This document shows, piece after piece, positions 1,061 to 44,674 of a DNA stretch of 64,000 bases. Location of the stretch: the NCBI RefSeq assembly GCF_000967915.1, contig NC_022549.1, positions 531,522 through 595,521 of the forward strand, given 5' to 3'. Position numbers and translations under genes: made by a program. Each line of letters begins with the position of its first letter. Positions within the stretch are counted from its first letter, which is position 1. The notes under the pieces are model-generated. The model saw nothing but the letters and a program-made list of their open reading frames with translations. It did no database searches and was not told the DNA's origin. Origin of the DNA: Acholeplasma brassicae (GTDB taxonomy: Bacteria > Bacillota_I > Bacilli_A > Acholeplasmatales > UBA5453).

Positions 1061-4000
1061 TGAGTATATTAAAAACAGCGTTTCAAACGACAAGTTTAAA
1101 CTCAGATAAACTTCAAATTGAATTATTAAAGACCGGGGATATTTTTAAAATTACCTCAGGTCATAACCAAATTAATCTACTATCTGGGAATTTAATCGAT
1201 GGGCAATTTTCAAATATTTACCTAAGAAGAAAAGACTTAGATGGGTATCAATACGAAAAACTGATTGGTGTCTTTTCTAAAGGTGGTTTTTGCCTAAAAG
1301 ACAACAAAGCCTACTATCAAGGCATCGCTCTAGGTGTTTCTTATCAAGTGGTTTTAAGCTTAGAGGATAACCTTTGGCACTACGATGTGACATTAAGTAA
1401 ACATGAAGGGACTTACGACTTAATCTACGCACAAGATTTAGGTATTGCGAGTAAGGGTTCAATTCAAAGCAGTGAGGCGTATACCGCGCAGTACATCGAC
1501 CATAAAGCATTTAAAGATGAGTTAGGGTATACCATTTGTTCAAGACAAAACCAAGGCGACCCACAATTTTTACAGATTGGGTCACTTAACAAAACCGTTG
1601 CTTATCAAACCGATGGGTTCCAATTCTTTGGGTTAAGCTATAAAGAAACCGGCATTCCTGAGGTATTATTAGAAGAAACACTTAAAAACGTCAATTACCA
1701 ATACGAGTTTCCATACATCGCCTTACAAACAGAGAGCTTTGAGCTTAAAAAAGAAGAAACCTTCTCGTTTTATGGCCTTTATTTGTCTTCACATGAAGAT
1801 GTGACGACAAAAATAGAGAAAGTAAAACCATATGAGGTAATTAAAGCCTTTGTTTCATTTAATGGGTTATATGATGAGAAAAACCGAATTGATTCGACAA
1901 ACGTATTACAAACAAAAGAAGTCAATCAAGCGTATTTTGAAGGTATTAACCTAAGACATGTTGAAGAAAAAGATGGCAAGTTATTATCATTTTTCAAGGA
2001 TGATCATGTCCACGTGGTCTTAAAAGAAAAAGAACGTTTGGTTGAACGTCCACATGGGCACTTGATACTACATGGGGATCTTTTACACGCGAGCGAAAAC
2101 GTGATGGCAACGACCAACTTCATTTATGGTGTATTTAACTCACATGTGGTTTTAGGTAACACTAATTTTCATAAACTAACCGGTGACGTGAGAAGCTTTT
2201 TAAACGTGACTAAAATTAGTGGGATGCGTATCTACGTTAAAATCGATGGTCGCTATGTGCTACTTGCGATGCCTTCTTTTTATGAGATAGGTATCAACTA
2301 CGCAAAATGGGTCTATGTCATCGAAGACGACGAATTGACGGTTTGTGTGTATTCAAACGAAGACACCCTAGTGGAAAAAACAACCCTTGAATCAAAGAAT
2401 CACAAAACCTACGACGTCATCGTTTCAAATCAACTGACGATGAATACCAACGAATACGAAACGAACATTTCATATACCCTTAACAAAGACACTTTGATTG
2501 TCGATGCCAAAGAAAATCAAATGATCATGGCGCACTACCCAAGTTTAAAATACCAGTTCAATACGTTTGGTTCAACCATAAAAATGGGACGAGATGTGTT
2601 TGGATTTGATGAAGATCAAAGTTTGATTTGTTTTACCTATGAAGGTGTTAGTAACCTACAAATCAATCTAGAAGCAACCTTCAATGACACATTTACAAAC
2701 CAAGACATCGACTTTGATAGATCCTTTAAAGAAGCCGTTTCATTCATTGATTTGTTAACGGGTATCCAAGTAAAAAACAAAGCAATGCATCAATTCATTG
2801 ATAAATTATCAGATACGGTCTTTTGGTATACCAACAACGCATTAACCCATTACGCAAGCCCACATGGACTTGAACAATATAACGGGGCCGCTTGGGGAAC
2901 TAGAGACGTGTGTCAAGGGCCAGTGGAACTCTTTATGAGTGCTCAACGATTCGATCTTGTCAGAGAAATTCTGCTTAAAGTCTTTTCACGTCAATTCATT
3001 GAAGATGGGGACTTCCCGCAATGGTTCATGTTTGACAAGTACTTTAGAATTCAAGCACATGAATCGCATGGGGATATTATCATGTGGCCAATCAGAACGC
3101 TTGCTCACTATTTGAAGATGACAAAAGATACCTCGATATTGATGGAACAAGTCGCTTATATGTCAAAGTCTAAAAATGAATTTACGAAAGAAACAGTAAG
3201 CTTGCTAGATCACGTGAAGTTCACACTTGAATCCATTAAAAAGAGTTTCATTCCAAACACAAACCTCCCACGCTATGGTGGGGGTGACTGGGACGATACC
3301 CTTCAACCGGCCAATCAAAAACTAACCGATAAAATGGTCTCTGGTTGGACTGTTGCCCTTTTCTATGACGCACTTGCGATCTTAGAAGAAGAGGTTAAAT
3401 CAGTAGATGACCGTTTTAGTTATGAGCTGAAGCAATTAAAAGAAGCGGTATCAACGGATTATAATAAATACTTAGTCAAAGAAAACGTACCTGCAGGGTT
3501 TGTGGTCATTGAAGACGATCACCTTGAGTACTTACTTCACCCAAGTGATTTAAACACCGGTCTGAATTACCGTTTGCTTGCGTTAAAACGTCCAATCATT
3601 TCACAAATGATCACAAAAGAACAAGCCAACAAGTATCATGACTTAATCAAAACACATTTAAAACACCCGGATGGGGTTCGTTTAATGAATACCGCTGTCA
3701 CGTATCAAGGTGGTAAAAAAACGTATTTCCAAAGAGCAGAAACTGCCGCTAACTTCGGTAGAGAAATTGGTATTCAATACGTACATGCTCACCTAAGATA
3801 CATTGAAGCAATGACCATCTTAGGCAAAGAAAAAGACGCATTTGACGCACTTTTTGAAGTTAATCCAATCAACATCAAAGACTCCGTTAAAAATGCCTCT
3901 TATCGTCAATCAAACGTGTATTTTTCATCCAGTGATGCGAAGTTTAACGACCGCTACGAAGCGAAGAAGAACTTCCATTTGGTTAAAGAAGGTAAGATTG

Positions 4001-4332
4001 AAGTCAAACAAGGCTGGCGCTTGTATTCCTCTGGTCCAGGTATCTACATCAATCAAGTGATCCGTAACATCTTAGGGATTAAAGTCTTAGATAATAAACT
4101 CTACCTTGACCCAATGCTAAAAGAAGCGTTTGATCAAACCGAAGTTACTTATCATTATCAGGGTAAGAAACTACACATTCGCTATCTCAAGAGTGAATCT
4201 GTAAGCCTAGAAATCAATGGCAAAAAGATTCCAATGACAAAGCAACAAAACCAATATAGAAACGCCGGGTTCTTGATTGATGATGCGTTCATCAATCAAC
4301 AAGAAACAATTAACATCACGTACTATTTTTAA
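1057..4332 (+). CDS. Large (1091 aa) glycoside hydrolase/glycan phosphorylase-like protein with an (alpha/alpha)6-barrel; family uncertain (GH94/GH149/GH161-like)
   Basis: Long single ORF coupled by ATGA to the GH3 gene. The size and context suggest a beta-glucan phosphorylase or hydrolase. No firm family assignment can be made without a search. Confidence 0.45.
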   Translation: MMSILKTAFQTTSLNSDKLQIELLKTGDIFKITSGHNQINLLSGNLIDGQFSNIYLRRKDLDGYQYEKLIGVFSKGGFCLKDNKAYYQGIALGVSYQVVLSLEDNLWHYDVTLSKHEGTYDLIYAQDLGIASKGSIQSSEAYTAQYIDHKAFKDELGYTICSRQNQGDPQFLQIGSLNKTVAYQTDGFQFFGLSYKETGIPEVLLEETLKNVNYQYEFPYIALQTESFELKKEETFSFYGLYLSSHEDVTTKIEKVKPYEVIKAFVSFNGLYDEKNRIDSTNVLQTKEVNQAYFEGINLRHVEEKDGKLLSFFKDDHVHVVLKEKERLVERPHGHLILHGDLLHASENVMATTNFIYGVFNSHVVLGNTNFHKLTGDVRSFLNVTKISGMRIYVKIDGRYVLLAMPSFYEIGINYAKWVYVIEDDELTVCVYSNEDTLVEKTTLESKNHKTYDVIVSNQLTMNTNEYETNISYTLNKDTLIVDAKENQMIMAHYPSLKYQFNTFGSTIKMGRDVFGFDEDQSLICFTYEGVSNLQINLEATFNDTFTNQDIDFDRSFKEAVSFIDLLTGIQVKNKAMHQFIDKLSDTVFWYTNNALTHYASPHGLEQYNGAAWGTRDVCQGPVELFMSAQRFDLVREILLKVFSRQFIEDGDFPQWFMFDKYFRIQAHESHGDIIMWPIRTLAHYLKMTKDTSILMEQVAYMSKSKNEFTKETVSLLDHVKFTLESIKKSFIPNTNLPRYGGGDWDDTLQPANQKLTDKMVSGWTVALFYDALAILEEEVKSVDDRFSYELKQLKEAVSTDYNKYLVKENVPAGFVVIEDDHLEYLLHPSDLNTGLNYRLLALKRPIISQMITKEQANKYHDLIKTHLKHPDGVRLMNTAVTYQGGKKTYFQRAETAANFGREIGIQYVHAHLRYIEAMTILGKEKDAFDALFEVNPINIKDSVKNASYRQSNVYFSSSDAKFNDRYEAKKNFHLVKEGKIEVKQGWRLYSSGPGIYINQVIRNILGIKVLDNKLYLDPMLKEAFDQTEVTYHYQGKKLHIRYLKSESVSLEINGKKIPMTKQQNQYRNAGFLIDDAFINQQETINITYYF

Positions 4333-4421
4333 ACCTGTTTTAGGACACAAAGTGCATTTGTGTCCTTTTTCACGTTTGAAATCAATACTTATTTGATATA
4401 ATAGAAATAGAGGTACACAAT

Positions 4422-5780
4422 ATGGAAAATAGATTAAACACAGGTTCACAAATTGAATTAGAAATCAAAAAATTAGGAATTAATGGGGAAGGCATCGGCT
4501 ATTATGAAAAAAAAGCCGTTTTTGTTGATTACGCCCTACCAGGCGAATTAGCCTACGTTGAAATCACGGATGATTTTAAAACATATTATAAAGCCAAACT
4601 GATTAAAACCATCAAAGAAAGCAAAAGTCGTATCACGCCATTTTGTCCAATCTACTTTGAATGTGGGGGATGTCAAACCCAACACATGGCGTATGAAGAT
4701 ACGTTACTACATAAAAGAGACTTAATTCTACAAGCGATTAAACGCTACGTCAAAGTACCGTTTAATACCAAAAAAGTAGATAAAGCGATTGGGATGGATA
4801 ACCCAAGTCACTACCGTAATAAAGCAAGCTTACCAGTTCAATATAAAGATGGTAAGAACGTCATCGGTATGTATCAAGCAGGCACAAATCACTTAGTTGA
4901 TTTTAAGGACTGCCCAGTACAAGACAATGACATCAACAAGTTTTTCAACTTGATTTTAAATCAAATGGAAAAACGAAAAATGAATGCCTTTAATCGTGGA
5001 GGCAACATCCGTTTTATCGTCATTCGTAAAACCAAACTAACCAATGAAATCCAAATCTCATTCATCGTTAATGAATCCTCAGAAGACGTCATTGAACTTG
5101 GTAAATACATGAAAGAAAAATTTGTTGAAGTTAGCTCGGTTTATGAAGTCATTAACAAAGATGTTAAATCTAGAGAATTCTTCACTAATGATAAAACATT
5201 AATTGCTGGTAATGAAACTGTCACTGAAGAAATGAACGGTATTACATTTAAGCTAAAACCAGACGCATTCTTCCAATTAAACACCACACAAGCAGACAAA
5301 CTTTATCAACTGATTGTTGAAAAAGGCGAATTTACTAAAAACGACATCGTTGTGGATGCTTATAGTGGGATCGCACCGATTGCCTTGTACGTTGCACCGC
5401 ATGTGAAAAAAGTGTACGCCATTGAAGCATTAAAAGCATCACACGAAAGTGCGATTGAGACCATTAAAGAAAATAATCAAGAAAACATTATACCAATGCT
5501 AGGTGATGTTAAAGAAGTACTTAATAAGAACAGAAACATCAAACCTGATGTGATTGTTTTTGATCCACCAAGAACTGGCTTAGGCCGTGCAGTGACGGAC
5601 TTCTTATTAAAACATAAACCGAAGAAGATTGTTTATGCTTCATGTAACCCATCGACATTAGCTAAAGACCTAGATGAGTTATTAAAAGCTTATGAAGTTA
5701 AATCAATCACACCACTCGATATGTTTCCTTATACAAGTCACGTTGAGAGTGTGACATTACTTACATTAAAAACGGCATAA
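4422..5780 (+). CDS. rlmD: 23S rRNA (uracil-C5)-methyltransferase RlmD/RumA family
   Basis: N-terminal TRAM domain. Fe-S cysteine cluster CPIYFECGGCQ. SAM-methyltransferase motifs VFDPPRTGL and ASCNPSTL. Confidence 0.85.
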   Translation: MENRLNTGSQIELEIKKLGINGEGIGYYEKKAVFVDYALPGELAYVEITDDFKTYYKAKLIKTIKESKSRITPFCPIYFECGGCQTQHMAYEDTLLHKRDLILQAIKRYVKVPFNTKKVDKAIGMDNPSHYRNKASLPVQYKDGKNVIGMYQAGTNHLVDFKDCPVQDNDINKFFNLILNQMEKRKMNAFNRGGNIRFIVIRKTKLTNEIQISFIVNESSEDVIELGKYMKEKFVEVSSVYEVINKDVKSREFFTNDKTLIAGNETVTEEMNGITFKLKPDAFFQLNTTQADKLYQLIVEKGEFTKNDIVVDAYSGIAPIALYVAPHVKKVYAIEALKASHESAIETIKENNQENIIPMLGDVKEVLNKNRNIKPDVIVFDPPRTGLGRAVTDFLLKHKPKKIVYASCNPSTLAKDLDELLKAYEVKSITPLDMFPYTSHVESVTLLTLKTA

Positions 5781-5880
5781 CAAAGACATAAATAAAATAG
5801 AACAAGAAGCATTTACCCCTTAAAAACTGGGTTAAATGCTTCTTTTTATAATTTTTGTGTAATGTGTAAACATAAATATA
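5720..5880. repeat. Junction repeat copy 1: native 3' end of rlmD (…DMFPYTSHVESVTLLTLKTA*) plus its terminator. This is the prototype of the direct repeats found at about 16.9, 23.1 and 26.1 kb.
   Basis: Contains the sequence cacgttgagagtgtgacattacttacattaaaaacggcataacaaag…agaagcatttacccc…gggttaaatgcttcttttt. It recurs with 80–90% identity three more times. Confidence 0.8.
5806..5847 (+). terminator. Rho-independent terminator of rlmD
   Basis: Hairpin gaagcatttacccc/gggttaaatgcttc followed by a T run. Confidence 0.7.
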
Positions 5881-5908
5881 TGCTTTAAGCATATATTTAT
5901 GTTTACAC
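5864..5908. repeat. Perfect 45-bp palindrome gtgtaaacataaatatatgcttt|aagcatatatttatgtttacac at the island junction
   Basis: Two 22-nt arms are exact reverse complements. The motif TGT(G/T)AAACATA recurs at the other junction copies. Confidence 0.8.
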
Positions 5909-6006
5909 TAAGTACAGGTTTTTGGTATCAGTTCACATTCGAAGTACTATTATTTATTCATAATTCGTTCACATTATTATTGTATATTGATTATGAGGTA
6001 TTCAAC

Positions 6007-6933
6007 ATGAAAGTAAAAAAAATACGTAAAAGGTTTTTTCTAATTGTACTTATTTTATCCGTTTCAATATTCTTGCAAGGACTTAATCAAAATATAAAAG
6101 TCAATCAGTTAATAAGAGATTTTAAAGAACGAGGTATAGAGGGAGAGACAGTAACCATCTATTTTGATAATGGGATGGAAGAAATAAGAATGTATCACCC
6201 AGTCGAAAGAATCAATGAATATGAGAAAGCGGATACACGTAGCCTTTTTTATACAACCAAAGATGAACCATTTATTGGTAAAAAAGGGGATATATTTGTG
6301 ACTCAGGAATCACCTTTTCCAAACATATTCGGTTTTCATCAATTGATGAGTTTTTTTGTTGGAGGACACGCTGCACTGAATAATGGTAACAATCAATTCA
6401 TTGAAGCTGTAGGCTTCCCAAAAGATGATGAAAGTATCTTTGATATAATCAAAGACCCTTCAGATGGTACACATGATTATTCAGTTGGTGTAAGACAATC
6501 TTCTACTAATTATTGGATGTTGCCATATTTTAGAGGAGAGAACGACTTGTCATATCCTTATTATGGTTCTTATTACAGAGAAAAATTCGTAGTATTAAGA
6601 GTAAATAATATAGATGAAGAAAAACTGGATCAAACTATGTCATATGCCAATGAACATTTAGAAAATCGTTCATTATATAATTTCCTTTTCATTATGGACA
6701 CAAAAAACAAATTCTACTTTACTGATTTTATAAGTCGTTCATACAGATATGGGTTAAGTAAGAATAGTTCAGATAAAAACTATCCAAAAACCCTAAATGA
6801 TAATGGTTTTGTAACAACTGTTAATGATCTTATCTTATCAAAGGATACATATATTACTGCTTATGTAGAAAACACAGATGGAATTAGACACATCTACTAT
6901 TTAGAAGATGAAGGATTGACATCTAATGAATAG
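6007..6933 (+). CDS. Hypothetical secreted/membrane-anchored protein; first gene of the inserted island
   Basis: Start taken at MKVKKIRKRFFLIVLILSVSIF (signal/TM). The annotated upstream start at 5899 overlaps the palindrome. No recognisable motif. Confidence 0.4.
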   Translation: MKVKKIRKRFFLIVLILSVSIFLQGLNQNIKVNQLIRDFKERGIEGETVTIYFDNGMEEIRMYHPVERINEYEKADTRSLFYTTKDEPFIGKKGDIFVTQESPFPNIFGFHQLMSFFVGGHAALNNGNNQFIEAVGFPKDDESIFDIIKDPSDGTHDYSVGVRQSSTNYWMLPYFRGENDLSYPYYGSYYREKFVVLRVNNIDEEKLDQTMSYANEHLENRSLYNFLFIMDTKNKFYFTDFISRSYRYGLSKNSSDKNYPKTLNDNGFVTTVNDLILSKDTYITAYVENTDGIRHIYYLEDEGLTSNE

Positions 6934-6953
6934 TTTGATATAGTATAGATTAC

Positions 6954-6972
6954 ACCCCACCACGGGAGGGGT
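6954..6972. promoter_or_regulatory. Putative CsoR operator, GC-rich pseudo-palindrome ACCCCACCACGGGAGGGGT, 20 bp upstream of copZ
   Basis: An identical 19-mer recurs at 13716–13734 in front of csoR. The CCCC…GGGG inverted repeat is typical of CsoR sites. Confidence 0.55.
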
Positions 6973-6991
6973 AAAAAAGGAGGAATTACTT

Positions 6992-7219
6992 ATGGCAACG
7001 CTAATTTATAGAATCGGAGATATCCATTGCATCGGATGCATCAATCGCATTACTTTAGCTTTAAAATCAGCGGGAGCAATCAATGTTGATATTAATTTTT
7101 CAACACATATTGCAAAAGTATTGACTGAAGAGGAAAAACCCAATTCAAGTATGTATCTTGAAGCAATTGTTCAAACAGGATATCAAGTCGAATACTTAAC
7201 GACCATCGAAGAGGAATAA
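6992..7219 (+). CDS. copZ: Copper chaperone CopZ (HMA domain)
   Basis: 75 aa with a CIGC metal-binding motif in an HMA fold, immediately upstream of copA. Confidence 0.75.
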   Translation: MATLIYRIGDIHCIGCINRITLALKSAGAINVDINFSTHIAKVLTEEEKPNSSMYLEAIVQTGYQVEYLTTIEEE

Positions 7220-7223
7220 TAAA

Positions 7224-9698
7224 ATGTCGAGTAATATTAAATATCGAGTGAATGGTATGACTTGTGCTTCGTGTGTCAACCATGTTGAAAAAGCATTAAG
7301 AAAAGTTGAAGGGATAATTGATGTTTCTGTGAATTTAGCAACTGAAACTGCAACAATTCAATTTGATGATAACAGTTTTAGTTCAAATCTTGCAATGAAT
7401 GCTGTTAAGGGGATAGGATATGAACTCATTACTATCGAAAACAATCATAAGACTGTGACTGCCAGAGTTGATGGAATGAGTTGTGCAACATGCGCAAACA
7501 GTATTGATAATACACTGTTGAAGATGGATGGGATTATTGATGCTCATGTTAATCTCGCTACGGAGAAAGTTACCATTCAATATGATGATCGCGTCATTCG
7601 TTTTAGTGACATCAAACACCGTATCCAAAACATTGGATATAAGATTAGTCTCGAAGTAACAAAGGATGAAACGGTTGATCCTGATACACTCAAGATGAAT
7701 TCCGCTAAAAAAAGAGTTCAATTGAGTTCAACAATAACTATTTTGATGATGTCACTCATGCTGATTCACATGTTTGTTGTTAAAATTCCATTATACACTT
7801 GGATCATTGCCATACTGGGTTTCCCAGTCATATTTATCATTGGCCGTCACGTGCACAGAGGAAGTTATTACTCTCTTAAATCATTGAAACCGAATATGGA
7901 TGTCCTTGTGTCACTCGGATCTATTCCACCCTATCTCATCGGTCTCACAGGATTGTTTTTCCCAATCACAACATTTATCGAAATGGCAACAACAATTATG
8001 ACATTTCACTTGATTGGAAAATTCCTGGAAAGTAAGGCTAAAGGAAAAGCATCCCAAGCCATCAAAAAATTAATGGAACTAGGTGCGAAAACTGCACGCA
8101 TTTTAGTCGATGGCAATGAGATCGAAGTTTTAACGAATGAACTCAGTGTTAAAGATATCATGATTATTAGACCAGGCGAAAAAATACCAACAGACGGAAT
8201 GATTATTGAAGGTAAAAGTTTAATTGATGAATCGATTGCAACAGGTGAATCGATGCCGGTCAAAAAGCATGTGGGTGACAATGTCATCGGAGCAACCATT
8301 AATAAAGATGGCTTGCTCAAAGTAGAAGTTACTAAAGTTGGTAAAGAAACATTCTTATCTCAAGTTATTGAAATGGTTGAAGCTTGTCAGGGGTCCAAAG
8401 TGCCTATACAAGAATTTGCCGATAGAATCACATCCTACTTTGTGCCAGCAATTATGGTTTTAACAGTACTCACGTTCAGTTCTTTTTTAATTTTTCAAAA
8501 TTTCCATCTGAGTATCTTAGAGTATATGGGAACTATCTTACCTTGGATTAACACAGATCAAACTCCATTAACGTTAGCATTTATTACTGCGACTGCTGTG
8601 TTAGTTATCGCATGTCCATGTGCACTTGGACTTGGAACGCCTACAGCGTTAATGGTTGGTAGTGGTGTTGGCGCAGAAAAAGGTATTCTGATTCGCAACG
8701 GTGAAGCAGTTCAAACACTTAAGGATATCAAAGCCATTGCTTTTGATAAAACTGGCACGTTAACATATGGGAAACCCGTAGTGACTGACAAGCATGCTAT
8801 AGGTATAAGTGAACATCAAATGATGCATGTCGCTGGATCACTTGAAACAGGATCAGAGCATCCATTAGCAATGGCAATTATCGAAGATGCCAAAAAAGCC
8901 AATCAAAAACTTTCAAATCCTATAGATTTTGAAGCCATATCTGGCATGGGTATAAAAGGTATTCTAGATAATAAGACATATTATTTTGGTAACAGAAAAC
9001 TAATCAAATCGATTGGTCATTCTTATGATGGATTAGAATCAACGATGCAACAACTAGAAAATGAAGCTAAAACGGTGATGATTCTAGCAGATGATCTAGA
9101 GATACTTGGAATCATTGCTGTTGCAGATGCATTAAAACCTGAGGCTACATATGTTATTCGGGCAATTGAAAATCTTGGTATAACGACTGCTATGATTACG
9201 GGAGACAATTCAAGAACTGCTCTTGCAATTGCGAAAAAAGCTGGTATAACGCGAATTATATCTGATGTTTTACCCGAAGGAAAAGTAAGCGAAATTTCAA
9301 AACTACAAAGCGAGTTTGGATTAGTTGCAATGGTCGGTGATGGTATTAATGACGCACCAGCGCTAAAACAAGCTAATGTGGGTATTGCAATTGGAACAGG
9401 TACTGATATTGCAAAAGAAGCAGCAGATGTTACATTGGTCTCTGGTGAGTTACATACACTGCTTACGTCCATTCAGTTATCGAAAGCGATCTTTACAAAG
9501 ATTAAACAAAACTATTTTTGGGCATGGTTTTATAATGCGATTGCAATCCCATTTGCGATGTTAGGCTTATTACATCCAATGATTGGTGCTGCTGCAATGT
9601 CAATCAGCTCACTTAATGTTATCTATAATTCACTTAGACTCAAAAAGCATTCATTCTTAAAAGTTGATAAGGAGTTAGTACATGCACACTCATCATAA
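7224..9698 (+). CDS. copA: Cu(I)-translocating P1B-1-type ATPase
   Basis: Two N-terminal HMA domains (GMTCASC, GMSCATC). CPC motif, DKTGTLT and GDGINDAP. Confidence 0.9.
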   Translation: MSSNIKYRVNGMTCASCVNHVEKALRKVEGIIDVSVNLATETATIQFDDNSFSSNLAMNAVKGIGYELITIENNHKTVTARVDGMSCATCANSIDNTLLKMDGIIDAHVNLATEKVTIQYDDRVIRFSDIKHRIQNIGYKISLEVTKDETVDPDTLKMNSAKKRVQLSSTITILMMSLMLIHMFVVKIPLYTWIIAILGFPVIFIIGRHVHRGSYYSLKSLKPNMDVLVSLGSIPPYLIGLTGLFFPITTFIEMATTIMTFHLIGKFLESKAKGKASQAIKKLMELGAKTARILVDGNEIEVLTNELSVKDIMIIRPGEKIPTDGMIIEGKSLIDESIATGESMPVKKHVGDNVIGATINKDGLLKVEVTKVGKETFLSQVIEMVEACQGSKVPIQEFADRITSYFVPAIMVLTVLTFSSFLIFQNFHLSILEYMGTILPWINTDQTPLTLAFITATAVLVIACPCALGLGTPTALMVGSGVGAEKGILIRNGEAVQTLKDIKAIAFDKTGTLTYGKPVVTDKHAIGISEHQMMHVAGSLETGSEHPLAMAIIEDAKKANQKLSNPIDFEAISGMGIKGILDNKTYYFGNRKLIKSIGHSYDGLESTMQQLENEAKTVMILADDLEILGIIAVADALKPEATYVIRAIENLGITTAMITGDNSRTALAIAKKAGITRIISDVLPEGKVSEISKLQSEFGLVAMVGDGINDAPALKQANVGIAIGTGTDIAKEAADVTLVSGELHTLLTSIQLSKAIFTKIKQNYFWAWFYNAIAIPFAMLGLLHPMIGAAAMSISSLNVIYNSLRLKKHSFLKVDKELVHAHSS

Positions 9699-16899: not shown

Positions 16900-17100
16900 A
16901 AATATGTTTCCGACATACACGAACCGACAAATTTTCGAGCAATCAGATATACTCCACGCACGTTGAAAGTGTGACACTGCTTTCTTTAAAAACAGCTTAA
17001 CAAAGCCATTCATAAAATAGAAAAAGAAGCATTTATCCCTTAAAAACTGGGATAAATGCTTCTTTTTTACTTTTTGCCCAATGTGGAAACATATCGAAAT
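16900..17100. repeat. Junction repeat copy 2: degenerate rlmD 3' end (NMFPTYT…HVESVTLLSLKTA*) plus terminator
   Basis: Contains cacgttgaaagtgtgacactgctttctttaaaaacagcttaacaaagccattcataaaatag…agaagcatttatccc…gggataaatgcttc and ccaatgtggaaacatat. Confidence 0.8.
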
Positions 17101-17404: not shown

Positions 17405-18307
17405 CTAAATTCTTTTACCTAAAATCTCACCTATTTTATCCATACGTTTTTTGGTGTCGTAATTTTTTACGTGTTCAAGTTCAAGCTTGTTAATCTCTGC
17501 GGTTAGAAATTTAAGTCGATCAGAATATTCTCTATACTTTGCATTAAATATTGATTCTGGAATATCTGGTGTTTTTACTTTTGTATCAATTAAGTTTGAT
17601 AATGCTATTTCGTTTTCATCTCTTTCTAATGTTAACCTTTCAATGATACCTTGGACATCATCGACTTTGATGGTTGATTTAATTACCCTTTGAATGGTTG
17701 ACATGATATCTAGATCTTTTAAGAAGACTTTGTTTAGCATATGGATTGTTGTTGCTTCAATAAGATCTTGACGACTCGCCTTGGCGCTACAGTTTGCCTT
17801 ACCATCAATGTAGCTACCGCACTGTTGCATCACCCTTTGTGATGGCTTACCGTAGTTCCAGTAACGTCTTTTTAATGTTCTGCCGCATTCACTACAAATA
17901 ATCATTGCTGTTAAAGGATACGTTCTACCATATTTTGAGAGGTTCTTATCTTCACCGATTCGTACCTTAGCTCTATCTTTTCTAATGCGTTGAGCTAGTT
18001 CAAATGTTTCTTTATCAATGATTGCCTCATGACTATTCTCTGTATAATAAGTAGGTGCATGATTTTTATTCTTAACTCTTGTGTGGTTCAGGTAGTCTAT
18101 ACTGATTGTTTTTTGCTGCAGCATATCACCCATGTATTTTTCATTTTTTAGAATGGTTGTAATCGTTGAAAGTCGCCACTTTCTTTTACCAGCACCTGTC
18201 TTTGCACCCATCTCAATGAGTTGCTCTGCAATTTTAGCTGGACCAAAATCACTAATGTACAAATTGAATATGAGTTTAACAATCTGTGCTTCCTCAGGTA
18301 CAACCAC
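17405..18307 (-). pseudogene. Large serine recombinase fragment: recombinase domain, zinc ribbon and coiled-coil only; catalytic N-domain missing
   Basis: Begins at VVPEEAQIVKLIF, the start of the recombinase domain. Zinc-ribbon CSECG…C present. No resolvase catalytic domain upstream. Confidence 0.7.
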
Positions 18308-19324
18308 AATCGATTTATGGGGTACACAAAAGATGAAGAAGGAAACCTAATCATTGTACCTGAAGAGGCTGAAATTATTAAGCGCATTTACAGAGAGTAC
18401 CTTGAGGGTAAAAGCCTAGCAGGCATTGGTAGGGATCTTTAGAAGGACGGTATTTCGACAGCTGCAGGAAAACCAAGATGGCGAATGGAGACCATCAAGA
18501 AGATTCTCTTGAATGAAAAGTACATCGGGGATGCCCTATTACACAAGACCTTCACCGTGGATTTTCTAACAAAGAAAAGAGTTAAGAATGAAGGCCATGT
18601 CCCACAGTATTATGTTGAAAATAGCCATGAAGCGACCATACCAAAGGAACTATTTTTACAGGCTCAGGAAGAACTTCATCGCAGGAATAATATTTACACA
18701 GGAACAGATAAAAACAAAAGAATCTATAGCAGTAAATATGCTTTGAGCACCATAACCTTCTGCGGGGATTGCGGGGACATTTACAGACGGGTGTATTGGA
18801 ATATACGCGGTAGAAAAGAGTTTGTATGGCGATGTGTCACAAGAATCGAGCAAGGCCCTGAAACGTGCAAGAACCGGACGGTAAAAGAAGGAGATTTATA
18901 TGATGCGGTTATGACTGCCATTAATAGACTCCTTGCCGGTGGAGATAACATGATAAGAACACTAGAAGAAAACATCCATGCGGTAATTGGCGACACCGTA
19001 GAATATAAGATTTCAGAGATTAATGCTTTGCTTGAAGAAAAGCAGAAAGAAGTGATCAGCCTTGCCAACAAGGGTAAAGATTACGATTTTCTCGCAGATG
19101 AGATAGATAGTCTTCGTGAAAAGCGTCAGAGTTTACTTGTGGAAGATGCATCCTTAAGTGGTGAGAATGATCGGATCGACGAACTTATAGGATTTATCCG
19201 CAGGAACAAATACCGTACTCTGAGATATGATGATACCCTAGTAAGGAAGATTATCCAGAATGTTAGTGTTTATGATGACCACTTTGTAATATGCTTTAAA
19301 TCTGGAATTGAAATGGAAGTATGA
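18221..19324 (+). pseudogene. Second, diverged large serine recombinase fragment, 5'-truncated and interrupted by an in-frame TAG at 18440–18442
   Basis: GYTKDEEGNLIIVPEEAEIIKRIY…GIGRDL*KDGISTAAGKPRW…, followed by zinc ribbon CGDCG. ORFs 18221–18442 and 18485–19324 share one frame. Confidence 0.7.
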
Positions 19325-23009: not shown

Positions 23010-23245
23010 ATGTTGGATATGTTTCCAACTACGAGTGTGGATATGTCCACCTTAACCATAGGGGTTGAGAACTCAGTTTTGATAGCTATCAAGGCAACTC
23101 GAAACACGTTGAGAGTGTGACATTACTTACATTAAAAACGGCTTAACAAAGCCATTCATATAATAGAACAAGAAGCATCAAATTCTTTAAATAGGATTAA
23201 ATGCTTCTTTTTTTGTTTTATGCGTAATGTGGAAACATCAAAAGA
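23010..23245. repeat. Junction repeat copy 3 (degenerate rlmD 3' end plus terminator)
   Basis: Contains gatatgtttccaactacgag…cacgttgagagtgtgacattacttacattaaaaacggcttaacaaagccattcata…agaagcatcaaattc…gattaaatgcttc and gtaatgtggaaacatc. Confidence 0.8.
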
Positions 23246-23351
23246 TGCATTAAACATATATTTTGCTTTAGCAAGGAAACACTCATCCGCCAATAATATA
23301 TTGATTTTCTCCAGATAATAGCATATAATAAAATTAAGTGGAGGAAATAAT

Positions 23352-23942
23352 ATGATTGTTACAACATTAAACTTAAAAGAAAAGTATAAGAGTTATACGG
23401 ATATTAATGGCAAAATCAAAAGAGATATTGATAATGGTTTCTTATTTCCTCTTGTACGAGGCATTTATGAAACAGAAAGCTCTGTTGATGGTTTTTTACT
23501 TGCTTCATATATTTATGGACCATCCTATTTATCTTTCGAATATGCACTTTCATATCATAATCTCATTCCTGAAAGAGTTGTTGTTTATACGAGTGCTACA
23601 TTCAACAAACGAAAAAGTAAGGTTTATCAAAATCATTTCGGACTTTATACCTATAGAGATGTTCCAAATGCTGCATTTCCTTATTCAGTAAAAGCTTATG
23701 AAGAAGACGGGTATGCTTGCTTTATAGCTAGCCCAGAAAAAGCACTATGTGATTTACTATATAACAGAAAACCAGTAACAAGTATCAAAGAATTAAAGAG
23801 ACTGCTTTTTGAGGATTTACGGGTAAATAAAGATATGTTTGAACAACTTAACTTTGATGAAATACTATTTTTATCTGATAAATACATATCGAACAATATG
23901 AAGTACTTAAGAAAATACATTGAAAGTGAGTATATGAAATGA
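23352..23942 (+). CDS. abiEi: AbiEi-like type IV toxin–antitoxin antitoxin (wHTH)
   Basis: Conserved LVRGIYE motif. Sits immediately upstream of, and overlapping, an AbiEii-type nucleotidyltransferase gene. Confidence 0.55.
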   Translation: MIVTTLNLKEKYKSYTDINGKIKRDIDNGFLFPLVRGIYETESSVDGFLLASYIYGPSYLSFEYALSYHNLIPERVVVYTSATFNKRKSKVYQNHFGLYTYRDVPNAAFPYSVKAYEEDGYACFIASPEKALCDLLYNRKPVTSIKELKRLLFEDLRVNKDMFEQLNFDEILFLSDKYISNNMKYLRKYIESEYMK

Positions 23943-24820
23943 CAATTATAGAGCAAATGATTAATAAGTATAATCCCATAACATTAGAAGATAAGAAGCA
24001 TGCAATAAAAGAAGTTTTACAAGAAGTGGTGTTGGCTGGTCTTTCTAAAACTGACTTTTTTAATCACGCTGCTTTTTATGGTGGAACAGCTTTAAGGATT
24101 TTTTACGGAATGGATAGATTTAGTGAGGATTTGGACTTTAGCTTACTTGTATCAGATGATACTTTCGATATAGATAAATATTTTAAACCAATAAGTGACG
24201 CTGTAAACTCACTTGGACTCAATTTTGAAGTTTCCAAAAAGGATAAGACGCTAAACTCAAATATTGATTCAGCTTTCATCAAAGGTAATACAAAAGAAAC
24301 CTTGATTACGATTTATTCAAGTTCATCAGATTCTAGACTTATTATTCATAACGAAAAGATTATCATCAAGTTTGAAGTTGATGTAAATCCCCCACTATAC
24401 GCACAGACAGAAATTAAGTTTCGATTATTACCATTCCCATACCAAGTTCGAGTTTATGATGCCTCATCGTTATTTGCTGGCAAAATTCATGCTGTGATTG
24501 CTAGAAGTTGGAAGAACCACATAAAGGGCAGAGATTTGTATGATTATGTCTATTATTTAAGTTTAGATACAAAAGTGAATTTAAAACATTTAGAAGCTAG
24601 ATTGAAACAAACTAAAACAATTGACGAAAACATCAAATTGTCAAAGGATTTTTTAATTAATATATTGGAAAAACGATTCGATGAGATTGATTATGATATT
24701 GCGAAATCAGACGTTAGACCATTTATTAAGGATCAGGCTACCTTAGACCTTTGGAGCAATAATTTTTTTAAATCCATTACGGAACAAATTAAAGTCGATT
24801 TGGAGGAAACTAATGATTAA
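23939..24820 (+). CDS. abiEii: AbiEii/AbiGii-family nucleotidyltransferase toxin (DUF1814)
   Basis: YGGTALRIFYGMDRFSEDLDFS nucleotidyltransferase motif. 4-nt overlap with the upstream gene. Confidence 0.7.
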   Translation: MTIIEQMINKYNPITLEDKKHAIKEVLQEVVLAGLSKTDFFNHAAFYGGTALRIFYGMDRFSEDLDFSLLVSDDTFDIDKYFKPISDAVNSLGLNFEVSKKDKTLNSNIDSAFIKGNTKETLITIYSSSSDSRLIIHNEKIIIKFEVDVNPPLYAQTEIKFRLLPFPYQVRVYDASSLFAGKIHAVIARSWKNHIKGRDLYDYVYYLSLDTKVNLKHLEARLKQTKTIDENIKLSKDFLINILEKRFDEIDYDIAKSDVRPFIKDQATLDLWSNNFFKSITEQIKVDLEETND

Positions 24821-25883
24821 ACCTAAGAAACTGAAAAAAGGTGATAAAGTAGCTATTGTTAGCCTGTCTTCAGGCATTTTAGGTGAACCTGAAGTAAAAC
24901 ATCAATTAGAACTAGGTATAAGAAGATTAAAAGAACTTGGTCTTGAACCTGTTTTTATGCCCAATACGCTAAAAGGTTTAAACTTTATAAAAAACAATCC
25001 CAATTATAGAGCAGACGATTTAATGCTTGCATTTAAAGATCCAACTATAAATGGTATTATTTGTGCAATAGGTGGTGATGATACTTATAAAACGATACCA
25101 TATCTCATGAATGAGGAGTTTAAAAAAACAGTACATTCAAATCCGAAAGTTTTTGTGGGGTTTTCAGATTCAACCAATAATCATTTAATGCTAAATAAAT
25201 TGGGATTAGTTACTTATTACGGGTTAAATTTTTTATCAGATCTTTGTGAACTACAAAAGGAAATGATTCCATATACACGAAAAAGCTACGAGAGACTGTT
25301 TATAAACGATGAATCATTTGAAATAGAATCTAGTCCGAAATGGTACTTGAATAGATCAAACTATGATGTTGATCAAATGTTTGTGCCACTTAACGAAATA
25401 GATGAAGACAAAGGGCATGAGTTTTTAAATGGATCGGGTGTCATTGATGGTGTTTTTTGGGGTGGTTGTCTAGAAAGTATCTATGATTTGTATACAAGTG
25501 AGAGGTATCTAGATCAAAGGCATATTTATAATCGTTATGGGTTAATTCCTAACAATGATTATTTTTCCGACAAAATCATATTCCTTGAAACAAGTGAAGA
25601 AAAACCAACGCCAGAAAAGTTTCATAGAATGCTATACTTTTTAATCGAAGAAGGTGTCATAAGTCGTGCCAAGTGTTTATTAGTTGGTAAACCATACGAT
25701 GAGGTCTATTATCACGAATATAAAGAAGTATTATTGAAGATATCAAATGATATGGGTTTACCCATAGTATATAACTTAAACTTTGGACATGCACTTCCAA
25801 GAACCATTATTCCTTACGGGATTAAAGGGAAAGTTGATTTTTATAACAAGTCAATTTCAGTAGTAGAAAAAATATTTGAATAG
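24813..25883 (+). CDS. S66-family serine peptidase (LD-carboxypeptidase / MccF-like)
   Basis: N-terminal LKKGDKVAIVSLSSG and a nucleophile motif VGFSDSTN. Overlaps the abiEii stop by 8 nt. Confidence 0.65.
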   Translation: MIKPKKLKKGDKVAIVSLSSGILGEPEVKHQLELGIRRLKELGLEPVFMPNTLKGLNFIKNNPNYRADDLMLAFKDPTINGIICAIGGDDTYKTIPYLMNEEFKKTVHSNPKVFVGFSDSTNNHLMLNKLGLVTYYGLNFLSDLCELQKEMIPYTRKSYERLFINDESFEIESSPKWYLNRSNYDVDQMFVPLNEIDEDKGHEFLNGSGVIDGVFWGGCLESIYDLYTSERYLDQRHIYNRYGLIPNNDYFSDKIIFLETSEEKPTPEKFHRMLYFLIEEGVISRAKCLLVGKPYDEVYYHEYKEVLLKISNDMGLPIVYNLNFGHALPRTIIPYGIKGKVDFYNKSISVVEKIFE

Positions 25884-25934: not shown

Positions 25935-26190
25935 CCAAGTATACGATATAATTTATGTTGCTTTGGTATTATGATCAAGTTTCAACCTAATAAAGTTAAA
26001 CATATTTTGGCTCATTTTGATGTTTCTTCAATACATACAAGGTTGATTTTGCAAGCAATCTAGTCGTATCAACGCACGTAGAGAGTGTGACATTGCTTAC
26101 ATTAAAAACGGATTAACAAAGCCATTCGTACAATAGAACAAGAAGCATCTAACCCCCTAAATAGTAATTAAATGCTCCTTTTTTTAGATG
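25935..26190. repeat. Junction repeat copy 4: about 125-bp inner arm plus degenerate rlmD 3' end plus terminator
   Basis: Contains cacgtagagagtgtgacattgcttacattaaaaacggattaacaaagccattcgta…agaagcatctaaccccc…taattaaatgctcc. The inner arm is repeated at 27535–27665. Confidence 0.8.
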
Positions 26191-26359: not shown

Positions 26360-27409
26360 GTGAATAAACTGCCCTTTAATATAGATTTAAATGAAATAGA
26401 AATATTAAAAGAACTCAACACTGCGAATCATCATATAGGCGAGTTAAAAGGTGTACTTAGAATACTTCCAAACTCTGGAATTGTTTTGAGTTTAATTAAT
26501 CTTAGTGAGTCAAAAGACTCATCAGCTATCGAAAATATCATTACGACCTATGATGAAATATTCAAAGAGATTGTATCAAAGACACCTATTGGAGGAAAAC
26601 CTAAAGAAGTCATAAATTACAAGCATGCAATCGATCATGGATTATTGATCATGAGACAAAAAGGATATATCAGTACAAATATACTTGTAGACATTCAAAA
26701 TGTCATCGAGCCGAATAAAGGTGGCATTAGAAAACTTCCTGGAACAGTAATCATTAACGATAAAACCAATGAAGTTGTACACACACCGCCACAAAATGAA
26801 ACAGAGATTCGTGAACTCATGCATAATCTTGAGTTATTCATCAATCAAAATAATGATTACGACCCATTGATTCAAATGGCTTTAATCCACTTCCAATTTG
26901 AGAGTATTCATCCATTTTATGATGGAAATGGTAGAACAGGCAGAATATTAAATATACTGTATTTAGTGTTAAAAGAAAAGTTGTCTGAACCGATACTCTA
27001 TTTAAGCAAGTACATTATTGAAAACAAGTCACAATATTACGATCTTTTGAAAAAATGCAATGATGACATATTAAATATAAAAGATTTTGTTGTATACATT
27101 TTAAAAGGTATTTCTGAAACTTCTAAACATACAATCAATCTCATATTAAGAATCAATCAATCGATAGAGTTAACAAATGAAATGCTGAAAAAACGATTGC
27201 CAGATATTTATCGTTATGAGATAGTCGAGCATTTGTTTTCTTACATGTATACAAAAAATGAGTTTTTTAGAGAAAACTTGAATATATCTAGAGCAACTGC
27301 AACTAAGTACTTAAAGCTGCTTGAAAAAGAAGGCTTCATTGTTTCTGAGCAATTAGGCAAAGAAGTAATCTATAAAAATGTCCAATTGCTAAATCTTGTT
27401 AAGGAATAA
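26360..27409 (+). CDS. fic: Fic-family AMPylase/adenylyltransferase
   Basis: Canonical motif HPFYDGNGRTGR. N-terminal SSAIEN matches the (S/T)xxxE(G/N) auto-inhibitory motif. Confidence 0.8.
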   Translation: MNKLPFNIDLNEIEILKELNTANHHIGELKGVLRILPNSGIVLSLINLSESKDSSAIENIITTYDEIFKEIVSKTPIGGKPKEVINYKHAIDHGLLIMRQKGYISTNILVDIQNVIEPNKGGIRKLPGTVIINDKTNEVVHTPPQNETEIRELMHNLELFINQNNDYDPLIQMALIHFQFESIHPFYDGNGRTGRILNILYLVLKEKLSEPILYLSKYIIENKSQYYDLLKKCNDDILNIKDFVVYILKGISETSKHTINLILRINQSIELTNEMLKKRLPDIYRYEIVEHLFSYMYTKNEFFRENLNISRATATKYLKLLEKEGFIVSEQLGKEVIYKNVQLLNLVKE

Positions 27410-27534: not shown

Positions 27535-27665
27535 ATACTGAATTAGGTTGCTTTGGTTTTTTGATGGTTTTCAAGCCTGTAAAGGCAAATATATATCGGT
27601 CGATTTTGATGTTACTGTGATACACAAAAGGTTCAATTCACAAGCAGTTCGGTCGTATCAGCGGT
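27535..27665. repeat. Partial junction repeat (inner arm only), homologous to 25935–26070
   Basis: ggttgctttggttttttgatggttttcaagcctgtaaagg…caagcagttcggtcgtatcagcgg matches gttgctttggtattatgatcaagtttcaacctaataaag…caagcaatctagtcgtatcaacgcacg. Confidence 0.6.
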
Positions 27666-27669
27666 TTTT

Positions 27670-28134
27670 ATGTCATTTCATCGTTCGTTAAGAGATTTGA
27701 AGAATAGAACAAGTTGCATCAAGAAAGAAGGTCTAGTTATGGGATTATTTGTTAAAAAAGCACCAAAAAACACTTTTTTAGGTAAAAGTAAAGCAAAGAA
27801 ATATTTGAAGACCGTTAATAAAGACGAAAGTCCTCAAATAGATTTATTAAGTATGTACGTGAATGGCGAATTAGAAATAATACTTCAAGGACACGATTTT
27901 GACTTAATCGAAGTGTTTGTCGATAAGCTTAAAAATGGTACGCTAGATTTACAAATTAATTTGCGCTTTGGTAATAAGAATATAGGGTTAGATTTTTTTC
28001 ATGATCATTATGAATATTGTTATTACCTGGCTGGGTGCACACCTGATGAAGTCGAGAACTCAATCATTAGACATGAGTATAAGGCGTTTGATTTCAATGG
28101 GTTATTAAAAGAAATGGCATCTAGATTGCACTAA
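27670..28134 (+). CDS. Hypothetical protein (start possibly at 27739, MGLFVKK)
   Basis: ORF only. No recognisable motif. Low GC. Confidence 0.35.
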   Translation: MSFHRSLRDLKNRTSCIKKEGLVMGLFVKKAPKNTFLGKSKAKKYLKTVNKDESPQIDLLSMYVNGELEIILQGHDFDLIEVFVDKLKNGTLDLQINLRFGNKNIGLDFFHDHYEYCYYLAGCTPDEVENSIIRHEYKAFDFNGLLKEMASRLH

Positions 28135-42653: not shown

Positions 42654-43424
42654 ATGAAAAATAATAATCCAGTATTTTCAAAAATCGAACGCCAAAGCGT
42701 CTATGACAATGTAGGTGAGGCCGCAAGCTACACCGGCGTGATGGCAAAAACATTAATTTTATTTGCTCTAGCGATTGGCTCTGCCTTTGGTTCCTTAATG
42801 ATTGCAGGATCAAACCCATCGTTATACATGGGCTTACTGGTTGCTTCTATCATCACAGGGCTTATTGGGGTGTTTGTCTCAACATTAAAACCGAATGTGG
42901 CTCATATTTTTGGACCAGTTTACGCGATCTCAGAAGGCTTCTCACTTGGCATCATTTCACTCGTCTATAGTGCGGCATTTGGTGATGCGTTTGGTGGCCC
43001 TGGTATTGTGGGTCTTGCAGTCATCATTACGATGAGTATTTTTGGTGGGATGTTGTTTGTCTATTCCTCACGCATCATTCGTGTAACTGATCGTTTTAGA
43101 CGATTTGTGATTGGGGTAGGTATGGGCATCTTATTAACGTTCTTACTGACTTGGATTGTCTCATTCTTTGATGGTGGACAAATGAGCTACACTTTGTTTG
43201 GTAACCCAAACAGTGGCTTAGTCTTGTTCTTATCACTGGTCTTAATTATGTATGGGGCATTTATGTTACTTTTACAATTTGACCACGTTGAACGTGCAGT
43301 TGATCAAGGCATGCCAAAGCGCTATGAATGGACTGTAGGGGTTGGTTTAATGGTATCAATCGTATACATTTATTATCAAGTCCTAAGATTATTAGCAATT
43401 TTAGCAAGCAGAAGTAGAGATTAA
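42654..43424 (+). CDS. Seven-TM membrane protein, possibly Bax-inhibitor-1/YccA family
   Basis: 256 aa with about 7 predicted helices. Confidence 0.4.
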   Translation: MKNNNPVFSKIERQSVYDNVGEAASYTGVMAKTLILFALAIGSAFGSLMIAGSNPSLYMGLLVASIITGLIGVFVSTLKPNVAHIFGPVYAISEGFSLGIISLVYSAAFGDAFGGPGIVGLAVIITMSIFGGMLFVYSSRIIRVTDRFRRFVIGVGMGILLTFLLTWIVSFFDGGQMSYTLFGNPNSGLVLFLSLVLIMYGAFMLLLQFDHVERAVDQGMPKRYEWTVGVGLMVSIVYIYYQVLRLLAILASRSRD

Positions 43425-43444
43425 ATCAAAGATAAAAGAAGTAG

Positions 43445-43645
43445 TAAATCTATGTAATTGAAGTGCCAAGAGAACATACGGTTGGTGAGAGTATGAGACT
43501 TCAATGGATTGAATTCATCTTTTTAGAGGTGTTAATCACACCCGCAGACGCTGCGTTAAAGCATTCAAGTGCTAAGTAATCATACTTAGAACTAAGGTGG
43601 TACCGCGATTAGTCGTCCTTAGATTTTTAAATCTAGGGACTTTTT
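43445..43645 (+). promoter_or_regulatory. T-box riboswitch leader for pheST
   Basis: T-box sequence aactaAGGTGGTACCGCG at 43588–43606, followed by terminator hairpin gtccttagattt/aaatctagggac and a T7 run just before pheS. Confidence 0.7.
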
Positions 43646-43666
43646 TTATGAAAAATGGAGGATAAA

Positions 43667-44674
43667 ATGAAAGAACAATTAGTTGAAATCAAACAAAAGA
43701 TTGAACAACAAATCAATCAGATTCAAGACTTAAACGACTTACAACTGCTTCGTTCAAGTGCGCTTGGTAAAAAAAGCGAATTACAAGGCTTGATGATTCA
43801 TTTAAAAGACTTACCAAATGACGAAAAACCAATGGTGGGAAAATTAATCAATGAAACCAAACAAGCACTAGAACTCATCTTTGATGAGCGTAAAGGCGTA
43901 TTAGAAGAAAAAGCGTTAAATGAAAAACTTGAAAAAGAACAAGTCGATGTGACACTGCCTGGTTTAAAGTTAGTCACTGGGTCAACACACTTACTTACCC
44001 AAGTTCAAGAAGACATTGAGCAATTCTTTATTGGGTTAGGTTATGAAATCAAAGACGGACCAGAAGTGGAATCCGATCACTATAACTTTGAAATGTTAAA
44101 CTTAGAAAAAGACCATCCGGCTAGAGCGATGCAAGACTCGTTCTACATTGACGTTAACCGTTTGTTAAGAACGCACACCTCACCTGTTCAAGCAAGAACG
44201 ATGCTTGAGTCAGAGGGGAAAAACATCAAAATCATTTGCCCAGGCAAGGTCTACAGAAGAGACGATGACGACCAAACACACAGCCATCAATTCATGCAAA
44301 TTGAAGGTTTAGTGATTGGAGAGTCAGTTTCATTTGCGGATTTAAAAGGCACGCTTTTAGCAGTCATTAGACATTTCTTTGGCAGTGAACGTACAATTCG
44401 TTTGAGACCGTCTTATTTTCCATTTACTGAACCTTCAGTTGAAGTCGATGTCTTCTCAGAAGATGGTCGCTTCATTGAAGTTTTAGGGGCTGGTATGGTT
44501 CATCCAAATGTTCTTAAAATGGGTGGATATGACCCGCAAAAAGTTCAAGGGTTTGCCTTTGGCATTGGGATTGAACGCTTGGCAATTTTAAAATACGCCG
44601 TTGATGACATTAGACAATTCTACACCAACGACGTTCGTTTCTTAAATCAATTTAAAGGAGGCTTGGAAAAATGA
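43667..44674 (+). CDS. pheS: Phenylalanine–tRNA ligase alpha subunit
   Basis: Class II aaRS motifs (FPFTEPS, GAGMVHP). Start taken at the ATG after RBS ggagga. Confidence 0.95.

Follow-up and report, generated by a model that had tools for sequence, protein, structure and literature searches.

The window analyzed here is a 64,000-nucleotide (nt) stretch of Acholeplasma brassicae (contig NC_022549.1, positions 531,522 to 595,521); numbers without a locus label are window positions, and loci in relatives are labeled L001-L110. Its forward strand carries a trio of overlapping genes encoding an antitoxin and transcriptional regulator (abiEi, 23352..23942, 196 amino acids), a DUF1814 nucleotidyltransferase toxin (abiEii, 23939..24820, 293 amino acids), and an S66 serine peptidase of the MccF-like clade (24813..25883, 356 amino acids). 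A first-pass annotation had described the trio as an operon and a discrete mobile module between two junction repeats, and had proposed that the peptidase adds a new layer to this toxin-antitoxin (TA)/abortive-infection system by acting on the AbiEii product. Its gene coordinates, along with the overlaps of 4 nt (ATGA) between abiEi and abiEii and of 8 nt between abiEii and the S66 gene, agree exactly with the list of open reading frames (ORFs), and its three family calls are upheld by Pfam and PADLOC. The operon is a real and recurring variant of AbiE loci that apparently has not been described before. Our literature search retrieved no paper joining AbiEii with MccF, and the lone match for AbiEii and LD-carboxypeptidase was an unrelated text-mining paper.

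The AbiE-S66 operon

AbiEi matches the PADLOC model PDLC02230 over its full length (2.8e-63, residues 3-192). AbiEii is assigned by PF08843 (2.5e-30; 106.6 bits vs the 22.5-bit cutoff) and by PADLOC PDLC02293 (2.3e-106), and it shows 100% identity to a Paracholeplasma (Acholeplasma) brassicae protein. Its nucleotidyltransferase motif YGGTALRIFYGMDRFSEDLDF (GGTAL…RFSEDLDF, about residues 46-67) aligns with that of the DUF1814 structures 4o8s and 4ok0, and the C-terminal 'KGRDLYD' is present in the translation. Sequence searches of the PDB with both proteins returned nothing significant except this motif. Like the AbiE systems (type IV/VII TA) of Lactococcus lactis and Streptococcus agalactiae and the related MenAT systems of Mycobacterium tuberculosis, the pair has a 4-nt overlap between a COG5340-type antitoxin gene and a DUF1814/PF08843 toxin gene, the nucleotidyltransferase motif, a single upstream promoter, and a location on mobile DNA with other defense genes. 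Unlike those two-gene systems, part of this lineage keeps a third, coupled S66 gene; in addition, AbiEi has no Pfam match at E<=0.01, neither protein has a close solved relative, and the host is a wall-less mollicute.

The AbiEii of S. agalactiae is a MenT-like, pyrimidine-specific nucleotidyltransferase acting on tRNAs, and AbiEi binds AbiEii and triggers its autophosphorylation at T65, which a Ser/Thr phosphatase reverses; characterized AbiE systems function as two genes (bioRxiv 10.64898/2026.01.19.700257). By analogy, AbiEi and AbiEii of the window are predicted to form a complete, self-sufficient TA/abortive-infection pair. AbiEii would add nucleotides to tRNA 3' ends and thereby arrest translation, while AbiEi would bind the toxin, induce its inactivating autophosphorylation, and probably repress the promoter.

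The predicted promoter and ribosome-binding site of the operon (23301..23344, forward strand) consist of a -35 box TTGATT (23301-23306), a -10 box TATAAT (23324-23329), and a GGAGG (23340-23344). This TTGATT-17-TATAAT arrangement upstream of abiEi is the top promoter-like match of the region (10/12), in which promoter-like hits overall occur at chance level (28 observed vs 29.6 expected). In an alignment of eight relatives, the block from the promoter to the Shine-Dalgarno (SD) sequence is near-invariant, and similarity starts at the -35 box itself, the sequence further upstream being unrelated. A candidate internal promoter for the S66 gene (24638-24666, inside abiEii) was rejected because both hexamers drift at synonymous positions across relatives. 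The S66 SD sequence (GGAGG, 24802-24806) lies inside the 3' end of abiEii, and an SD 7-9 nt before the S66 ATG is retained in most relatives. The abiEii-S66 junction ranges among them from a 23-nt overlap to a 13-nt spacer, never beyond. The shared conserved promoter, the lack of a conserved S66 promoter, the retained SD, and the tight junction spacing together lead us to predict one operon of three genes with a single promoter, for which cotranscription and translational coupling are the best reading. The operon proposed in the first-pass annotation is thereby strengthened.

Recurrence and loss of the S66 gene

S66 homologues came from the protein database and from scanning a single genome for each species. 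AbiEi-AbiEii lies directly upstream, in the same order, at each of the 16 loci (12 sequence clusters) with an S66 66-97% identical to that of the window, and the three proteins diverge in parallel (AbiEi 70-99%, AbiEii 65-98%, S66 66-97%; the AbiEii values of 65% come from loci with just a C-terminal fragment on the contig). The hosts are Acholeplasmataceae, Izemoplasmatales, and metagenome-assembled genomes of other Mycoplasmatota/Bacilli. The pairing thus recurs in other genomes, an outcome on which the first-pass annotation had staked its proposal beforehand.

About nine different flanking contexts are represented among the 16 trio loci. The methyltransferase gene rumA lies immediately upstream in L005, L067, L068, L095, and L060; L003 is flanked by a UvrD-like helicase and a PAS/EAL gene, and FtsX follows the trio in L100. 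In L097-L099 (about 650-8600), the most divergent full trio (S66 68%) has an IS110-family transposase on one side and a type I restriction-modification system on the other, and the rumA and X repeats (described below) are missing there. This context implies that the trio travels together outside the rumA hotspot too. In L060 (5650-7936, a 73%-identity trio), the S66 gene is followed by genes for an APH phosphotransferase and GNAT acetyltransferases, including an Acetyltransf_3 protein of what we take to be the RimL/MccE-type family, which also detoxifies processed microcin C. Such neighbors are resistance-type company for S66.

AbiE neighbors were found by tblastn in 0 of the 39 assessable loci with an S66 of <=61% identity, and the 73 upstream ORFs from these loci yielded no AbiE among the top 25 families listed by Pfam and PADLOC, a single weak match being possible. 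The nearest unlinked S66 paralogues (61%; L062-L064 and L105) have ordinary nondefense neighbors on Acholeplasma-like contigs and repeatedly adjoin a Peptidase_C39_2 gene; in wall-less bacteria, the ancestral S66 may thus have belonged to a housekeeping setting of peptide processing. Since no S66 at <=61% identity has an AbiE neighbor, the association, real and long-lived as it is, is confined to one lineage and reflects a single captured gene passed down by descent rather than independent pairings.

A metagenome scan with AbiEii, blind to S66, recovered 32 loci at 77-98% identity, 27 of them with enough downstream sequence. Among these 27 relatives, S66 is intact in 8, a remnant or pseudogene in 5, and absent from 14, while AbiEi and AbiEii are full length in all loci of the scan that were assessed. 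The remnants are varied: S66 is cut to 216 amino acids by a deletion reaching the repeat in L070, frameshifted in L071, and reduced to 23 amino acids in L075 and 63 amino acids in L081 and L082; the S66 of L024, from the S66-first set, is truncated as well. DNA homology to the window likewise ends at various points (24780-24800, 24844-46, 24862, 24886-88, 25001, 25413, and 25644). In L096, the first 11 S66 codons remain, followed by an unrelated 127-amino-acid gene with its own ribosome-binding site. The next gene after AbiEii in S66-less loci encodes HTH_3, Fic, AAA_14/DUF4143, GroEL, or BtrH_N proteins, with intergenic gaps between.

In the AbiEii tree, S66-bearing loci occur on both deep branches, mixed with remnant and S66-less loci, and the still more divergent L097-L101 trios (AbiEii 65-77%, the lowest value on a partial fragment) also have S66. 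Parsimony favors a trio in the ancestor, from which S66 has since been lost independently at least seven times. This repeated loss beside intact AbiE genes indicates that the AbiE pair does not need S66. Pairwise dN/dS ratios (nonsynonymous to synonymous substitution rates) of 0.12-0.21 for abiEi, 0.06-0.13 for abiEii, and 0.10-0.23 for S66 reveal purifying selection on all three genes, so that S66 must be functional where it is intact. In L066 (4001-5945), S66 has a dS of only 0.14 to the window (93% amino acid identity) vs about 0.5 for AbiEi/AbiEii, and its first 12 residues differ; this contrast points to recombination inside the module, i.e., a mosaic operon.

Junction repeats derived from a recombinase target at rumA

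The repeats that flank the trio are copies of the 3' end of a rumA/rlmCD-like (uracil-5) methyltransferase gene (4422-5780). The window holds four copies, at 5739-5898 (inside and just after the source gene), 16951-17092, 23077-23270, and 26047-26185, and every copy retains the last 14-17 RumA codons (…HVESVTLLTLKTA and stop) and the terminator hairpin. The left junction repeat (23105..23265, forward strand) comprises the last 14 rumA codons (…KHVESVTLLTLKTA and stop), the hairpin at 23172-23214, and about 50 nt of rumA-downstream DNA. In the right junction repeat (26075..26185, forward strand), the rumA 3'-end copy (…STHVESVTLLTLKTD and stop) has a slightly degenerate hairpin. Positions 23077-23214 and 26047-26184 match at 79%; a 30-nt repeat core occurs 3 times in the window vs 0.00 expected, and blastn adds a more diverged copy. 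At L005, L067, L068, and L095, the left repeat is the genuine rumA 3' end.

The right end of the islet is formed by a 122-nt element, here called X (25953..26074, forward strand), with a second window copy at 27543-27663, after the SoFic gene. X runs straight into the rumA copy on the right side of units, the boundary falling between …TCAACG and CACGTTGAGAG. All cassette junctions of related loci have it in conserved form, and it closes every small cassette in Acholeplasmataceae arrays on the right, among them AbiE-S66, SoFic, and AAA_14/DUF4143 units. The L001 array has units of 3.0, 2.7, and 1.35 kb, with X joined to the rumA-copy repeat (X-DR) at 901-1133, 4171-4402, and 7141-7371 (X itself at 901-1022, 4171-4291, and 7141-7262) and X alone at 8733-8847. 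Two other identities were rejected. X is not decayed rumA coding sequence, the RumA match being limited to the last 14-17 codons in the repeat part, and the junction is not a structured or known RNA, with no Rfam match at E<=1 and a folding z-score of +0.39. After the last X of the window, a 154-amino-acid ORF with no Pfam family (27670-28134) has 74%-identical DNA in an X-bearing IMG/VR contig (L110, 1756-2151).

Matches to the X core occur in five IMG/VR viral contigs. In one of them, the 43.6-kb L108, X-DR is followed by the gene for a 585-amino-acid large serine recombinase (LSR), at the start of the contig, and by a cI-like HTH_3 gene; in L107, an HTH_3 gene and a 572-amino-acid LSR precede X. 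The distance from X to the LSR gene is 214 nt in the former and 215 nt in the latter. An LSR fragment in the window (17405-18307, reverse strand) aligns at 93% identity with residues 211-509 of the L108 enzyme, and the window matches L108 in the DNA between repeat and recombinase gene as well; a second fragment lies at 18485-19324 on the forward strand, and both lack the resolvase domain. Because the rumA 3' end is duplicated and X-DR stands beside a full-length LSR in viral contigs, the repeats are attachment (att) remnants left by an LSR-dependent prophage or integrative element targeting the rumA 3' end, and X probably represents the arm of the right att junction on the side of the element. 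The bounded module of the first-pass annotation therefore has real repeats, beyond chance in number, and now an explanation for them. An AbiEii relative was looked for in viral contigs and none was found, which leaves no evidence for a phage-borne trio.

The trio belongs to a larger array (4422-27722) that begins with rumA, metal-resistance island A, a repeat, a decayed LSR element with island B, and another repeat, and ends with abiEi-abiEii-S66, the X-repeat, SoFic, and X. The islet is about 3 kb long; the three operon ORFs are the only ones between 23215 and 25952, and no recombinase is among them. A recombinase acting in trans or homologous recombination between the repeats could move the islet, if it is mobile. 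Island B carries cadC, cadA, and a gene for a CopZ-like Zn-binding protein, and the two heavy-metal islands together encode Cu and Cd P-type ATPases, CueP, Lgt, a two-component system, CadC/CadA, and the CopZ-like protein. The SoFic-type Fic adenylyltransferase gene (26360-27409; PADLOC SoFic, 2.6e-95), a defense gene, forms a unit of its own with its promoter region. SoFic also lies downstream of the trio in L001 and L002, and in L088 it follows, at a distance of about 3 kb, an AbiE pair that lacks S66. Its location upstream of AbiE in L066 and downstream in the window argues that the array units are shuffled, and the X-marked small cassettes could be recombinase-less, shuffled defense cassettes.

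Integrative elements and their recombinase-less remnants accrete in tandem at the 3' ends of conserved genes, as in staphylococcal cassette chromosome (SCC) elements at rlmH/orfX and in arrays of integrative and conjugative, integrative and mobilizable, and cis-mobilizable elements (ICE/IME/CIME) at tRNA genes or rumA. The array of the window is like these in its direct repeats that copy the 3' end of the target gene, its serial units, some of them without a recombinase, the related full-length serine recombinase beside the same junction elsewhere, and the TA pair inside. It is unlike them in the length of the repeat unit (about 250 nt, made up of X and the rumA 3' end) and in its Acholeplasmataceae/Izemoplasmatales hosts. 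Elsewhere in the window, a T-box leader (43420-43623, 103 bits) upstream of an ORF at 43655-44674 and a tRNA-Leu(GAG) gene (52654-52739) are ordinary chromosomal features unrelated to the array.

Likely activity and role of the S66 peptidase

Both S66 domains are present (PF02016, 4.9e-29; PF17676, 1.6e-18), and the triad Ser118 (GFSD), Glu259 (ETSEE), and His326 (NFGH) is invariant in 21 homologues. These comprise 11 AbiE-linked and 10 unlinked proteins and share 51 invariant residues, including S118, E259, H326, and W177, a Trp within the long interdomain insertion. Only three positions (L42, Q148, and C288) are specific to the linked clade, none of them in the triad or at W177. Neofunctionalization of the linked S66 clade was accordingly rejected, its active site being the same as in stand-alone homologues.

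Among solved proteins, the best matches are 4e94/4eys (4.3e-102) and Bacillus anthracis Ba3275 (about 2e-70), both deposited as 'MccC family protein', followed by the MccF-like BA_5613 of B. anthracis (4e-23), Listeria Lmo1638, Escherichia coli MccF (about 6e-15), and, last, LdcA (1e-9). LdcA, the murein tetrapeptide LD-carboxypeptidase, has the S66 family and the catalytic triad in common with the window protein. The LdcA equivalog model NF008424, however, scores 38.4 bits vs a 378-bit cutoff and covers residues 253-343 only. The host, as a mollicute, is wall-less and has no peptidoglycan, which makes murein recycling or an LdcA-type cell wall role implausible. The subthreshold equivalog score, the weakest PDB match, and the wall-less host thus led us to reject LdcA identity. 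A further difference from MccF-type enzymes is that LdcA gives no protection against microcin C (PMC8323819).

The protein is like MccF and its stand-alone homologues (BA_5613, 4e94/4eys, and Ba3275) in the two-domain S66 fold, the Ser-His-Glu triad, and the long insertion with an invariant Trp. As for most MccF homologues, its gene sits outside any mcc cluster: no MccB/ThiF-type gene was found nearby, the neighbors being AbiE, SoFic, metal-resistance, HAD, TfoX, and glyoxalase genes. The lack of an mcc cluster around S66 marks it as of the stand-alone type, not a true self-immunity gene. Unlike MccF, it is embedded in a TA operon, and it is only distant kin of the biochemically characterized enzymes (E of about 4e-23 for the MccF of B. 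anthracis and about 6e-15 for that of E. coli). MccF splits microcin C and its processed form at the carboxamide bond that joins the aminoacyl or peptide moiety to the nucleotide moiety (PMC8323819). It takes adenylates as well as cytidylates, and stand-alone homologues give resistance (PMC8323819; bioRxiv 10.1101/2022.03.27.485901). Likeness to these stand-alone relatives suggests that the S66 protein of the window is an MccF-like detoxifying enzyme, and its substrate is predicted from the same comparison.

We favor, with a probability of roughly 0.5, the reading that S66 is a dispensable MccF-like cargo gene on an AbiE islet, independent of AbiEii chemistry. The islet, without a recombinase of its own, is a unit bounded by att remnants, the rumA copy on the left and X plus the rumA copy on the right. 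The ancestor of this AbiE lineage would have acquired S66 in a single capture, and the gene is probably translationally coupled to abiEii. With its Ser-His-Glu triad, the enzyme most likely attacks toxic aminoacyl- or peptidyl-nucleotide antibiotics by hydrolyzing their carboxamide bond and so would provide resistance or detoxification. TA cassettes stabilize integron arrays; the AbiE pair might incidentally stabilize S66 on its islet. The bonds in known AbiEii products are phosphodiester and phospho-threonine, not amide, which leaves an MccF-type enzyme with nothing obvious to reverse. The proposed new layer on the AbiEii product does not fit this mismatch in bond chemistry, nor the descent within one lineage, the repeated loss, and the unchanged active site; the fallback offered in the first-pass annotation, MccF-type immunity as an independent gene, is the better reading.

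Several points weigh against cargo status or the proposed activity. Tight linkage has outlasted saturating synonymous divergence and moved to unrelated contexts, which argues, by guilt by association, for a functional tie; this long persistence is the one real argument for a functional role of S66 in AbiE. The known close relatives of this S66 clade are AbiE-linked without exception, and some of the pseudogenes on metagenome contigs could be assembly errors. On the enzymatic side, W177 is no more than a candidate counterpart of W186 of E. coli MccF, the Trp that stacks on the adenine base. Literature searches found no functional papers on Ba3275, 4e94, or 4eys, the closest solved relatives. 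No microcin-C-like cluster is encoded near the trio, and we know of no microcin-C-like producer or cluster from this habitat.

It is possible, but clearly less probable, that S66 is a hitchhiking general hydrolase of non-MccF type, trimming exogenous peptides or muropeptides, i.e., a copy of a mollicute housekeeping paralogue with no tie to antibiotics or AbiE. The unlinked paralogues at 61% identity, set among ordinary chromosomal genes and often beside Peptidase_C39_2, have an identical active site, and frequent loss would fit a redundant copy. Such a copy, however, is not expected to remain under purifying selection across saturating divergence. The solved MccF-like proteins are also far nearer to the S66 sequence than LdcA is, the host itself lacks peptidoglycan, and the APH and GNAT neighbors in L060 are company of the resistance type.

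We consider it unlikely that S66 truly belongs to the AbiE system of this lineage as a third component, tuning activation or reset of the toxin or acting on a nucleotide-linked molecule tied to AbiEii, whether by deacylating aminoacyl-tRNA 3' ends to expose AbiEii substrates or by destroying an infection-made aminoacyl-nucleotide. Gene order and tight coupling are strictly kept over 66-97% identity and about nine contexts, one common promoter serves three genes under purifying selection, with no conserved promoter for S66, the close S66 clade occurs only with AbiE, and both enzymes handle nucleotide-linked substrates. Against these stand the loss or decay of S66 in about 70% of AbiE relatives with intact AbiE genes, the distant S66 genes without AbiE neighbors, the lack of any active-site change in the linked clade, and the two-gene makeup of characterized AbiE systems. 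AbiEii products, moreover, would be phosphodiester-linked tRNA extensions and phospho-threonine, not bonds of the S66/MccF type. Doubtful, too, is a conditional form of this role, in which S66 would act on an aminoacyl- or peptidyl-nucleotide or on the aminoacylated tRNA 3' end and thereby gate AbiEii, for example, by exposing or protecting acceptor ends or by destroying an aminoacyl-nucleotide that comes from a phage or a competitor. A merely accidental adjacency in this one genome, with S66 unrelated and separately transcribed from the promoter-like hexamers at 24638-24666 inside abiEii, is highly improbable, given chance-level promoter-like hits (28 vs 29.6), the lack of conservation of that site, and a trio found in at least 12 sequence clusters and about nine contexts, which already contradicts it.

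If S66 is cargo only, the locus illustrates, in wall-less bacteria, how a TA/abortive-infection pair comes to share one mini-cassette with a probable antibiotic-detoxifying enzyme and is shuffled with it at a prophage att hotspot; it also bears on the formation of defense and resistance islets. For annotation, such S66 genes in mollicutes should not be named LdcA. Should AbiE instead be modulated by S66, the AbiE/MenT nucleotidyltransferase toxins would have their first accessory enzyme, and a peptidase would for the first time be linked to a nucleotidyltransferase TA/abortive-infection system. The S66-plus, S66-remnant, and S66-minus relatives provide a natural contrast for experiments on such modulation.

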